A stretch of DNA of 64,000 nucleotides from positions 69,599 through 133,598 of the forward strand of contig CANPVM010000002.1 of assembly GCA_947581805.1 (NCBI GenBank). Reading direction: 5' to 3'. Positions 48,714-50,944 of the stretch are shown piece by piece (the first letter of the stretch is position 1; the number at the start of each line of letters is the position of its first letter). The notes under the pieces were generated by a model. That model searched no databases and had not been told where the DNA came from. It saw only the letters and a program-made list of their open reading frames with translations. The position numbers and the translations under genes were made by a program. Source of the DNA: an uncultured Clostridia bacterium. GTDB taxonomy: Bacteria; Bacillota; Clostridia; TANB77; CAG-508.

Positions 48714-49301
48714 TTAATTTACACTTGATTTTCTAATTTTTTCATCAAATTCTTCCCACGATTTGCTAAATACATGGTTTGCAAACATTTCTTTTAAACC
48801 AGTAATCTGTTTTAATCGAATTATTTCATCTAATTCCATTCCTAAATGTTTTGAAATTTGTTGCTCTGACCATCCCATATCTGTTAACGACAATACAATG
48901 TGAGACATATCAATAATTTGATGTGTTCCTCTTGCACGATTATGTCTAATTGTAGATGCCATTCGATTTTCTAAGTCTTTATCAATAGTTACTATAGGAA
49001 TTTGTTTTAAATGAAAATATTCTTTTGCACAACGATAACGGTGGAAACCATCTATAACAATATATTGGTCGTTCTTTTTATCATAATATGTAACGATTGG
49101 TTGTGTGTAACCATCTTCTTCAATGGAATGTTTTAGTAACTCCATTTCTGGTGGTGCTACTTTATTTGGGTTGTAATCATTAGCAATTACTTTATCAATA
49201 TCTACCATTTTTACATTTAATACAGGAAATGTTATTTCTGACATGATTGAACCTTCCTTCTTTTTTCTATTATATTTATTATTTATCATAAATAATAACA
49301 A
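48714..49301 (-). CDS. ParB/Srx N-terminal-domain protein (IbrB-like).
   Basis: 'IVIDGFHRYRCAKE' is a ParB-box-like GxxRxxA motif; 195 aa. It is the last gene of a three-gene operon with overlapping stop and start codons. Confidence 0.65.
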   Translation of the reverse strand: MLLFMINNKYNRKKKEGSIMSEITFPVLNVKMVDIDKVIANDYNPNKVAPPEMELLKHSIEEDGYTQPIVTYYDKKNDQYIVIDGFHRYRCAKEYFHLKQIPIVTIDKDLENRMASTIRHNRARGTHQIIDMSHIVLSLTDMGWSEQQISKHLGMELDEIIRLKQITGLKEMFANHVFSKSWEEFDEKIRKSSVN

Positions 49302-49641
49302 AATTTTTCAAAGTATCTTCGTTATTTAAATGAAAACCTGCTTGTACATATAAATCTTTATAAATATTTGGTACAATACTTTCTTGTATTTTGTTTTCTT
49401 CTCTTATTTGTGTTAATATTTCTACTAAATAACTATCTTTCATGGTATAAACATTTTTGATAACATTCTTTACAACAGAAACAAAACAAACAAGTCTATC
49501 TTCTTCAAGATATAAATACCATTCTTTATCATTATCATCATAAATTCTATCATTAATTTGTTTTTGAACAATACGTGAACCAAACATTCTTCCCATATAG
49601 GTATAAAAATTTTCTTCTTTATTATTCATTTTTACTATCAT
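49279..49641 (-). CDS. Small hypothetical protein (120 aa) embedded between the IbrA-like and IbrB-like genes.
   Basis: The ORF overlaps the upstream gene end by 20 nt and the downstream gene start by 23 nt, implying translational coupling. Confidence 0.4.
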   Translation of the reverse strand: MIVKMNNKEENFYTYMGRMFGSRIVQKQINDRIYDDNDKEWYLYLEEDRLVCFVSVVKNVIKNVYTMKDSYLVEILTQIREENKIQESIVPNIYKDLYVQAGFHLNNEDTLKNFVIIYDK

Positions 49642-50944
49642 AATTTGCTTCCTCTTTTTCTCTATATTCTTCTACAATTTTTTGTAAGCTTTTATCGTCT
49701 GTTAATGTATCTTTGTTTAATAAGTTGTCCCATTTGTGAATTAGCCTTTGCAATTCTGCATCATCTGTCTTGGTTTGTCCAAAAGATAATCTACGCAAAT
49801 AAAAATCATTTTTTTCAATTGCTCTTGCAATTCTTCTCCACGAAATTGCTTTCTTTTGGTTTTCTAATTTGCATTCTGCTTTTTCTGGAATATCTTTAAT
49901 TTCTACATTATATTTATTTTTATACCATATCATAAATTTTTTAATTTTTCGATAATAATGCATCATTAAATCTTTATTATAAATTCCAATACTTTCTAGC
50001 AAAAATACAGCATATTCTTGCCATGTCATGAAATCTGGTTTACAAGATTTTATATTGCCTAATGCTGTTGTTTTACAATAAATATTTCCAAAATTAACAC
50101 CATTAACACGATTTAGTATTTTACCCCAAGTTTCATATTCCAAGGCTTTAAATTGATTTAACCCATTTCTTTGGTCGTCTCCATATGGCTGGCATAGCCT
50201 TTGTTCAAAAATACTGACTCCATTTTTATACATTAATTCATATATATAGTTAAATTTCAAATCTAGTTTACTAACAGCACCCCAAATATCCTCTGTTTTC
50301 CAATCATAAATGGGATAGAAATTATACACATTAATATGTTTCTCATTTAATTTTATTTTTGTTGTCCAATTGTGACCTTTATAAGTTATCTTTTTTTCTT
50401 GGAAAGCAATGGTTCGAAATCGATTTAAACTTTCGTCTGTACGGATTCCAATACCACATGCGACTTTCGTTTGATATTTTTTTTGATACCAATCTGCAAA
50501 TTGAATAATAAAATCTTCGAATTCTTCTCCTTTAACAAACCAATCAAAAGGACAATTATTTATATTGATTGCATCTTTTGGCATAGGTCTTACCCATAAA
50601 TGCTTGCTTTCTTCTTCCCAACAAATCCATTTTGGTTGCAATACAGACACTGCGTTGCGCAGTGCCATTGGAAGTGCTATATGATAAAAGTCGCGTATTT
50701 GTGATAATGTTTTTAATTCTTCAATATGTTCTATGGTATATTGGTACTGTGCTTCTAAGTCGATATAAAGAACATCAAATTTTTTTTGATGCTTTTTTGC
50801 TACCATGTTTGCCAGTTGTACCATAACGGAACTATCTTTTCCACCACTTACACTAAAATATACATTTTCAAATTCTGTAAAAATAAAATCTAATCTTTCT
50901 AATGTTGCTTGTAATACATCTTTTTCTAAATATTTTTTTGCCAT
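49622..50944 (-). CDS. PAPS-reductase-family PP-loop protein with a DUF3440-like C-terminus (IbrA-like).
   Basis: The PP-loop 'YFSVSGGKDSSVM' near the N-terminus; 440 aa. Architecture matches IbrA. Confidence 0.7.
   Translation of the reverse strand: MAKKYLEKDVLQATLERLDFIFTEFENVYFSVSGGKDSSVMVQLANMVAKKHQKKFDVLYIDLEAQYQYTIEHIEELKTLSQIRDFYHIALPMALRNAVSVLQPKWICWEEESKHLWVRPMPKDAININNCPFDWFVKGEEFEDFIIQFADWYQKKYQTKVACGIGIRTDESLNRFRTIAFQEKKITYKGHNWTTKIKLNEKHINVYNFYPIYDWKTEDIWGAVSKLDLKFNYIYELMYKNGVSIFEQRLCQPYGDDQRNGLNQFKALEYETWGKILNRVNGVNFGNIYCKTTALGNIKSCKPDFMTWQEYAVFLLESIGIYNKDLMMHYYRKIKKFMIWYKNKYNVEIKDIPEKAECKLENQKKAISWRRIARAIEKNDFYLRRLSFGQTKTDDAELQRLIHKWDNLLNKDTLTDDKSLQKIVEEYREKEEANYDSKNE

Follow-up and report, generated by a model that had tools for sequence, protein, structure and literature searches.

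The 64,000-nucleotide stretch of contig CANPVM010000002.1 from an uncultured Clostridia bacterium, referred to here as the window, carries a three-gene operon on its minus strand. The operon comprises an ibrA-like gene (A), a middle gene for a protein of 120 amino acids (aa) (M) and an ibrB-like gene (B). The triad is a fixed chromosomal operon of phage origin and not a mobile defence island, and at least 146 species of uncultured gut Clostridia retain it with little change. Judged from their sequences, A and B are a genuine IbrA and a genuine IbrB, whereas M, which matches no family in the libraries searched, is predicted by structural modelling to be a minimal GNAT-fold protein. The function favoured for the operon, which is held tentatively and short of probable, is that of a domesticated phage module for ATP-dependent adenylation on DNA, in which IbrB would guide the reaction and M would be an accessory.

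Organization of the operon

The preliminary description of this DNA had reported three translationally coupled open reading frames (ORFs), the last of them 195 aa in length. All three ORFs were present on the minus strand at the coordinates given there, and the boundaries of the genes were as follows:

49622..50944, minus strand: A, ibrA-like; 440 aa; PAPS-reductase-family PP-loop ATP-pyrophosphatase domain and DUF3440
49279..49641, minus strand: M, predicted minimal GNAT-fold protein whose acetyl-CoA loop is degenerate; 120 aa
48714..49244, minus strand: B, ibrB-like; ParB/Srx N-domain (DGFHR, RHNRARG) and, after it, a helix-turn-helix (HTH) region; 176 aa when read from the corrected start

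The coupling held for A and M, in that the end of A and the start of M overlapped by 20 nt and a GAGGAAG ribosome-binding site preceded the M ATG at 49641, but it did not hold for M and B, which were separated by a gap of 34 nt. The 195-aa ORF of B, opening at TTG 49301, was a mechanical maximum only. The conserved start was ATG 49244, with the ribosome-binding site GAAGGAAGG in front of it, and the B orthologues and the gene calls on independent assemblies were 174–176 aa in length. Hence, the B gene spans 48714–49244, and with this correction A and M remain the sole overlapping pair. The B-type gene started 378 nt downstream of A with M alone in between, and the GC content of the triad (25–27%) was close to that of its surroundings.

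Identity of the IbrA-like and IbrB-like proteins

The motif SGGKDS was located at residues 33–38 of A, and the protein matched Pfam PAPS_reduct (PF01507; 8.7e-13, 49.1 bits versus a gathering threshold of 22.5) and DUF3440 (PF11922; 1.3e-25, 90.6 bits versus 25), as expected from its earlier assignment to the PP-loop PAPS-reductase family. Moreover, A matched phrog_2302 over its full length (positions 4–380 of 381). Its identity to annotated IbrA of Streptococcus and Escherichia phages and of Klebsiella was 38–39% over approximately 90% of the length, and it rose to 55.6% for a Clostridium scindens phage protein and to 57.7% for a Paenibacillus larvae plasmid protein. The PP-loop SGGKDS and approximately 60 invariant residues were retained from phage to chromosomal IbrA. 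B contained DGFHRYRCAKE and matched Pfam ParB_N (7.9e-10, 39.1 bits versus 26.3), and thus the ParB/Srx assignment stood even though the length did not. B also matched phrog_2159 (7.5e-67), and its identity was 51% to the phage CHPC877 IbrB (170 aa aligned) and 58% to the ParB of the P. larvae plasmid. The motifs NxYNPN, DGFHR and TIRHNRARGxH were invariant in 33 diverse IbrB sequences, from phages to chromosomes. The likeness to an IbrA/IbrB pair that had been proposed at first sight was therefore borne out, with identities to family members of 38–58% for A and 51–58% for B.

Two identities that the preliminary description had named as refuting its reading, namely a plain CysH for A and a partition ParB beside a parA for B, were checked, and neither was found. 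The scores of A against the CysH and APS/PAPS-reductase models were 25.2 bits (NF002537, cut-off 154), 19.3 bits (TIGR00434, cut-off 165) and 18.9 bits (TIGR02057, cut-off 254). The identity as a plain CysH was rejected on these scores of 18–25 bits versus cut-offs of 154–254, and CysD (NF003587) matched the PP-loop region only, at 28.7 bits versus 195. For B, the ParB partition profile aligned through the HTH region, soon after which the protein ends at 176 aa, where a partition ParB would carry a C-terminal dimerisation domain, and the nearest solved structures were ParB, Noc and SbnI. The partition model TIGR00180 (parB_part) gave 39 bits versus a cut-off of 58.45, and no parA adjoined B, the sole ParA-like P-loop protein nearby being the tyrosine-kinase-type gene of the cps locus at 52986–54095. 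A ParB for chromosome or plasmid partition (ParABS) was rejected on both counts. A scan for candidate IbrB sites near the operon returned only AT-rich inverted repeats with low information.

The PP-loop domain of A was modelled confidently. CysD, the PAPS/APS reductases and FMN adenylyltransferase had the nearest folds; NAD and GMP synthetases, TtuA and LarE came next. In an alignment of 29 diverse IbrA sequences, C251 was the sole well-conserved cysteine (93%); with only one such residue, A is not expected to hold an iron–sulfur (Fe–S) cluster of the DndC type.

Predicted GNAT fold of the middle protein

The preliminary description had found no recognizable family for the 120-aa protein. This held in the sequence libraries, where M had no match to any Pfam, NCBIfam, PADLOC or PHROGs family, but it did not hold for the structure prediction recommended there, which yielded a confident GNAT fold. 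M is not a chance ORF, because it has 270 homologues in a large protein collection (none of them named), a ratio of non-synonymous to synonymous substitutions (dN/dS) of 0.08–0.38 and a confidently predicted fold. The AlphaFold2 (AF2) model had a predicted local distance difference test score (pLDDT) of 87.7 and a predicted TM-score (pTM) of 0.82, and its topology, b1-a1-a2-b2-b3-b4-a3-b5-a4-b6-b7, was that of a GNAT. When the model was searched with Foldseek, the top 50 matches in the PDB and the named matches in BFVD were all GNATs with a probability of 1.0. The query-normalised TM-scores against GNATs of the PDB were 0.55–0.66 with at most 17% identity to the top matches listed, and a sequence search of M against the PDB returned nothing significant. 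An exhaustive profile search reached 154 cluster representatives, and remote relatives of M passed the Pfam GNAT cut-offs directly (e.g., P0195, 35 bits versus 20.7), whereas M itself was under every Pfam GNAT threshold. According to the model and these relatives, M is a minimal GNAT-fold protein. It shares its topology with the Pfam families Acetyltransf_1/7/10 and with PseH (4xpl), ElaA (5z6n) and the PA4794-like structure 1xeb; in contrast to these GNATs of approximately 140–170 aa, it has only 120 aa and no Q/RxxGxG/A loop.

The alignment of homologues revealed an almost invariant N-terminal patch, FYxYMGxxFGSRxxQxxNDRIYDD..KxWY. The whole M family conserved this patch and a C-terminal GF...KNF, but not the cofactor loop. 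The remote relatives kept the motif A core YVxPxYRxxG, whereas the subfamily of the window had KNVYT-MKDSYL at this position, with neither the Arg nor the Gly and with a conserved acidic residue at the start of a3. In this subfamily the a3/b5 region was also shortened, and M lacked the canonical pyrophosphate loop Q/R-x-x-G-x-G/A at the b4–a3 junction. Motif A thus appears, from the alignments, to have been lost only in the M subfamily of the window. A toxin–antitoxin pair of the TacT/AtaT type, for which a GNAT toxin of approximately 160–175 aa with a small ribbon-helix-helix (RHH)/DUF1778 antitoxin was the criterion, was considered and rejected; no antitoxin-like gene was present, IbrA and IbrB flanked M in all loci, and motif A was lost.

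Distribution of the module and its gene orders

The search of GTDB covered one genome per species, and 80 M-encoding loci were fetched and compared. M was encoded in 146 genomes, all of which were metagenome-assembled genomes (MAGs) of uncultured gut Clostridia from rabbit, mouse, human, chicken and other hosts. Conservation of the triad, which the preliminary description had suggested checking, was complete: A, M and B were colinear in 80 of the 80 species-level loci, and the single missing A was due to a contig edge. Among the remote motif-A-positive relatives of M in viral and metagenome collections, IbrA and/or IbrB flanked M in 32 of the 33 loci, which represented approximately 27 distinct contigs. 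These loci had two orders, helicase-IbrA-M-IbrB or IbrB-X-M-IbrA, and M overlapped IbrA in both. In the viral contigs with the latter order, the four overlapping genes followed a PDDEXK exonuclease, an unknown gene and a single-stranded DNA-binding protein (SSB). The gene X, an ORF of 136 aa (L101:4628-5038, with equivalents in L102–L111), overlapped both IbrB and M and had no Pfam family. It is unrelated to M, and its identity as a second GNAT was rejected (hhalign probability of 0.04, no Pfam match); X may be a fourth component of this version of the module.

In a gut prophage (L136/L137), the order was hyp404, SNF2 helicase, IbrA, M, ParB, resolvase and integrase. Its M (122 aa) matched the M family of the window with an hhalign probability of 99.8% and 42% identity, and its motif A was likewise degenerate. 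A plasmid of P. larvae (ERIC III) had a 138-aa M-like gene between the IbrA and ParB genes. Since M adjoins IbrA and IbrB in prophages, viral contigs and the P. larvae plasmid, and in two gene orders, it appears to be a recurrent third subunit of the pair that none of the libraries searched describes. The pair also occurred by itself, in Streptococcus thermophilus phages, a C. scindens phage, a Geobacillus prophage, phage PhiR5_2 and the enterobacterial ybdNM. The earlier statement that the middle gene lies outside the described pair was thus correct, both for the E. coli type of IbrAB and for ybdNM. A tblastn search with three M-family members against 50,697 phage genomes gave no match, though 223 of these genomes carry IbrA.

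Additional genes accompanied the pair in some of these loci. A protein of approximately 376–404 aa (phrog_16123, no Pfam family) always preceded the SNF2 helicase in the IbrA(-M)-IbrB modules of prophages and plasmids (L136:5391-6605, L134:5221-6351, L099:2446-3615 and L100:2446-3630), and it probably belonged to the mobile module in its ancestral form. In 7 of the 80 chromosomal loci, prx and the triad had a gene for a 569-aa DnaB-like helicase (phrog_19) between them, immediately upstream of ibrA (L018–L020, L023, L041, L044 and L049; also L005–L009, at 4904-6613). The SNF2 helicase occupied the same slot in the prophage copies, and the window had no helicase. A helicase partner therefore recurs in differing forms beside ibrA.

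Chromosomal fixation of the triad

The preliminary description had seen the operon in a patch with a beta-CASP nuclease gene, a DUF1540 gene and a broken prx, between fba and the cps locus, and had found this placement consistent with an accessory or defence-island-like insertion, noting that similar pairs are the core of Dnd/Ssp systems. The placement was accurate, as the neighbourhood in the window reads smpB, fba, beta-CASP gene, DUF1540 gene, triad, frameshifted prx and cps genes; the interpretation was not sustained. The triad was colinear throughout the 80 loci, its flanks were housekeeping genes and the constraint on A and B resembled that on fba. Approximately 20 of the 80 loci kept the DUF1540, beta-CASP and fba neighbours. 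Other loci had the contexts recO-dcd-serS...nrdD-nrdG-prs-rpsU or leuS-topA...murA-ftsQ-ftsA-ftsZ-spoIIGA-sigE, and aspS, uvrC, hsp33, hpt and DHH/DHHA2 were further neighbours. An fba-to-prx synteny throughout the clade was rejected, because only these 20 or so loci shared it and de novo clustering of the flanks resolved many housekeeping contexts. No SNF2 helicase, prophage partner gene or tyrosine integrase was found in the flanks of the 80 loci, and serine-recombinase matches, ranging from weak to strong, were present in the flanks of 6. In a few relatives, a large serine recombinase gene adjoined or interrupted prx upstream of the triad (L005:1517-3082, L014:1-182 and L021), which suggests occasional insertions at the prx spot.

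Against close and distant relatives, the dN/dS values were 0.03–0.07 for A, 0.012–0.07 for B and 0.016–0.10 for fba at a saturated dS of 0.5–2.2; M, with the values given above, was under purifying selection that was more relaxed than for A and B. With such low ratios at such high divergence, the triad appears to be long-resident and strongly constrained, A and B as much as fba, and not recently transferred. Within this clade, the module passes on by vertical inheritance under strong purifying selection.

These results bear on the proposal that the triad provides anti-phage or anti-plasmid defence within a defence island, by self-marking of the Dnd/Ssp type or by other immunity, which is quite improbable. 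A has a superfamily kinship with DndC, but its scores were far under the family cut-offs: 20.5 bits versus 290.4 for TIGR03183 (1.9e-04) and 27 bits (4.6e-07) for the PADLOC DndC over a stretch of only 66 aa. The DGxHR-type ParB/Srx domain of B is kin to DndB. In the DndB–DndC pair (and SspD), too, a ParB/Srx protein of this type is joined by a PP-loop ATPase of the PAPS-reductase family, which there acts on DNA. The Dnd systems differ in having a 4-Cys cluster, DndA, DndD, DndE and a restriction module, whereas A has DUF3440 in place of the C-terminal region of DndC and lacks a DndC-like Fe–S cluster with its single conserved cysteine. None of DndA, DndD, DndE or a restriction module was found among the neighbours in the window or in the 80 related loci, nor did a cysteine desulfurase, SspBC or a nuclease or effector partner accompany the triad. 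The search of PADLOC-DB 2.0, another of the checks suggested earlier, identified no defence system; it gave weak domain-level matches only, to DndC and to the ParB domain within an MTase_II model, with none for M. Defence would suit a module that originated on phages and plasmids, which often carry conflict genes. It would also suit the variable flanks: in the closest relatives the beta-CASP gene gives way to a homologue of 30% identity, and a few loci have serine recombinases nearby. However, the triad is colinear across 80 species in several housekeeping contexts, and dN/dS values of 0.01–0.07 at saturated dS are the opposite of the usual turnover of defence islands. Membership in the Dnd/Ssp systems was rejected, and the link to them holds at the level of the superfamily only.

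A role in thiol or sulfur redox chemistry is very improbable. In such a role, an Srx-fold IbrB and a PAPS-reductase-like IbrA with a single catalytic-type cysteine would repair oxidised sulfur, for instance on peroxiredoxin, or serve sulfur assimilation. The peroxiredoxin gene prx is situated 38 nt upstream of A in the window and is syntenic in related loci, but it lay within 8 kb of the triad in only 9 of the 80 loci, often parted from A by inserted genes, and it is frameshifted in this genome while the triad is intact. The enterobacterial ybdNM is likewise found near ahpCF and dsbG (Klebsiella aerogenes LR134125.1, 513625-522764: ahpCF-dsbG-ybdO-ybdNM), and the cys regulon and ybdNM were both up-regulated in a ybdO mutant; the occurrence of an IbrAB-type pair near a peroxiredoxin in two unrelated lineages may be a coincidence. 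The ParB/Srx fold includes sulfiredoxin, and C251 is conserved in 93% of the IbrA sequences. Sulfiredoxin has a cysteine in the motif that matches DGFHR, however, and B lacks this catalytic residue. Furthermore, the CysH, CysD and APS-reductase models were far under their cut-offs, and the phage copies had no redox neighbours.

Proposed function of the module

A PP-loop marks enzymes that cleave ATP into AMP and pyrophosphate as they adenylate a substrate. In the function tentatively favoured here, IbrB would bind DNA and, gated by a nucleotide, would position IbrA, which would adenylate a group, either of the DNA itself or of a partner bound to it, and thereby ready this group for substitution. 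The resulting change would alter how that DNA is read or handled. M would take part as an accessory subunit and dock by way of the conserved patch at its N-terminus (FYxYMGxxFGSR...NDRIYDD..KxW). Relatives of M that keep the RxxG loop probably also perform acyl transfer, whereas the M of the clade of the window is probably a non-catalytic adaptor or regulator, because this loop is lost. A role on DNA is supported by the positions of the mobile copies, which are near an SNF2 helicase in prophages or near a PDDEXK exonuclease and SSB in viral contigs. ParB/Srx proteins are also known to pair with DNA-modifying enzymes, namely DndB with DndC and DpdB with DpdA (PMC12839542). DNA modification by the module would fit the activation of prophage genes, the sole reported phenotype of the family.

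Several points weigh against this function. The papers searched on IbrA/IbrB give no substrate, product or activity, only the label "co-activator of prophage gene expression", and searches on DUF3440, IbrA/IbrB, IbrAB and ybdN/ybdM returned no mechanistic study. The DUF3440 half of A (residues 240–440) was modelled by AF2 at a pLDDT of 30–60, too poor for structural inference, so that no DNA-binding surface is demonstrated on A. Genes for a sulfur or methyl donor, or for any other co-substrate, are missing from the operon, as are restriction and reader partners. Among the PP-loop enzymes with a characterised activity, the majority have tRNA or small molecules as substrates and not DNA. Moreover, gene order is the sole basis for proposing a complex of A, M and B, and the loss of motif A is no proof that catalysis is lost.

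The bias of characterised PP-loop enzymes of this fold towards tRNA is also an argument for a module that modifies tRNA or rRNA, with IbrA in a TilS/TtcA/ThiI-like role, M in TmcA-like acyl transfer or RNA binding and IbrB as an NTP-dependent cofactor. Weak matches to TtcA and TilS, the presence of TtuA among the fold matches, the housekeeping level of conservation and the neighbours leuS, aspS, serS and rpsU would suit a role in translation. These neighbours vary by lineage, however, and none of them is a conserved partner. The nearest relatives of A are CysD and the PAPS reductases rather than tRNA thiolases, ParB_N with an HTH is a DNA-binding architecture, and the mobile copies belong to modules for DNA replication and recombination. 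An RNA substrate is therefore considered improbable.

A purely regulatory module would leave the DNA chemically unaltered. In this case, IbrB would be a ParB/VirB-like DNA-binding switch that activates or de-silences promoters, and IbrA and M would modulate IbrB, for instance by making or using up a nucleotide ligand or through a modification of IbrB. The only phenotype of the family, which is carried in annotations, is the activation of prophage eib genes; IbrA/IbrB were reportedly found to activate them in work on the E. coli strain ECOR-9 in 2002. Regulation would also agree with the repression of ybdNM, the E. coli paralogues, by a LysR protein of their own, with the listing of YbdM among predicted transcription factors, with the HTH-like region of B and its extremely conserved nucleotide pocket, and with the location of the prophage module on the lysogeny side, between the lysis genes and the integrase. 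A regulatory switch leaves unexplained why a 440-aa PP-loop enzyme with approximately 60 invariant residues is conserved as strongly as B, and it does not account for the recurrent helicase, exonuclease and SSB neighbours. This explanation is rather unlikely, although it deserves more weight than RNA modification, defence or redox chemistry.

Neighbouring genes and transcription signals

The signals and the small gene next to the operon were as follows, the promoter and terminator calls being consensus matches only:

50965..50993, minus strand: promoter-like site TTGACG-17-TAAAAT; consensus scan with 10/12 matches; approximately 20 nt upstream of the A start, overlapping the prx end
48378..48548, minus strand: DUF1540 gene, 56 aa; Pfam DUF1540; downstream of B
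48306..48334: bidirectional terminator-like hairpin (13-bp stem, then a T-run) at the end of both the minus-strand unit and the convergent beta-CASP gene

Promoter-like sites were no commoner in the region than in shuffled sequence, which makes the site upstream of A weak evidence for a promoter. The consensus scan found no terminator-like site between B and the DUF1540 gene, and the latter is possibly co-transcribed with B. The DUF1540 gene is probably not a functional part of the module, because it is a neighbour in only 20 of the 80 loci.

The gene convergent with the operon encodes a beta-CASP/metallo-beta-lactamase (MBL) nuclease (46811-48289, plus strand). Its counterparts were 29–37% identical in several relatives, including the closest ones, in which IbrA is 93–94% identical, and 58–76% identical in others (comparisons listed for L015–L017, L022, L023, L043, L046, L047, L049 and L059). 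The slot thus holds divergent homologues and varies locally, next to an operon of great stability. The best NCBIfam matches of the nuclease, Cas14 of type VII (257 bits versus 800) and aCPSF1 (209 versus 580), were both far under their cut-offs.

Frameshifts in ibrA orthologues and prx

A shared +1 site, AAY-C-GGN-GTN, was found at the position of residues 281/282 in 26 ibrA orthologue loci, comprising 24 species representatives and two extra loci. The in-frame orthologues, that of the window included (approximately 50100), read AAY-GGN-GTN at this position. The loci concerned were as follows:

ibrA +1 frameshift (e.g., L056:1040-1125): L024–L028, L030, L033, L037, L040, L050, L051, L053, L055, L056, L063, L064, L066, L074, L081, L085, L087, L091–L093, L095 and L096

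Synonymous variation goes on past the site in the +1 frame, and conservation extends over the 24 codons that precede the next ATG. CGG accounted for only 4 of the 534 Arg codons in the long ORFs of the window. These sequence features fit programmed +1 frameshifting at a hungry CGG codon, conserved in the subclade, better than decay or assembly error; gene fission is a less likely alternative. If confirmed, the ibrA frameshift would be a rare bacterial example beyond prfB.

The 1-Cys peroxiredoxin gene prx (50983-51706, minus strand) was split at approximately 51571 by one extra C (CAT CCT C GGA GAC), and skipping this C restored HP-GDFTPVCTTE. The lesion was present in three independent assemblies of this species (L001–L003), whereas 15 other loci compared were all in frame. 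The prx of the window is probably a species-specific pseudogene, as far as these assemblies indicate. Its lesion, CCT-C-GGA-GAC, is formally similar to the ibrA site and also puts a CGG codon in the A-site.

A more far-reaching reading was also weighed, in which the three proteins would form a hitherto unrecognised enzymatic machine, derived from phages, that places a novel covalent mark on nucleic acid by adenylation-driven substitution and, in the motif-A-positive forms, by acylation. The clade would have co-opted this machine for an essential housekeeping or epigenetic role, and the +1 frameshift on CGG would set its dosage in one subclade. As a whole, this combination is improbable.

Comparison with known systems

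The annotated IbrA/IbrB pairs share with the window the domain architectures PAPS_reduct with DUF3440 and ParB_N with HTH, the same catalytic and pocket motifs, and adjacent, often overlapping genes in the order A then B. They have no GNAT gene in between, whereas the module of the window contains one and is chromosome-fixed across the whole clade. The prophage IbrAB modules include a helicase and a partner of approximately 400 aa, both of which are absent from the window. The pair ybdN-ybdM of E. coli K-12 and the Enterobacteriaceae resembles the operon in being a chromosomally fixed, family-wide IbrAB-type pair with approximately 39% identity to A. It differs in the absence of a GNAT gene and in its dedicated adjacent LysR regulator, YbdO/CitR, which acts as a repressor. 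Since ybdNM belongs to a different phylum, the two modules were probably acquired independently. The same three families occur together in the IbrA-M-IbrB modules of prophages, plasmids and viruses (L136/L137, the P. larvae ERIC III plasmid and L101–L130). In contrast to the window, these mobile modules are accompanied by an SNF2 helicase and the protein of approximately 400 aa or by an exonuclease and SSB; many have the order B-X-M-A with an RxxG-keeping M, and none is annotated or has been described.

Implications

The IbrAB pair itself is known and very common (223 phage and 731 plasmid records, with at least 8,000 candidates in each of two protein searches), and its E. coli K-12 copy is ybdNM. 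The libraries and papers searched contain no description of a GNAT as third subunit, of its two natural forms or of the domestication of the module across a clade. The occurrence of M with and without the acyl-CoA loop offers a natural, built-in comparison. The association of the mobile forms with a helicase, exonuclease and SSB points to DNA as the substrate. Moreover, selection on the operon as strong as that on a glycolytic enzyme argues for a cellular role and not for conflict alone.

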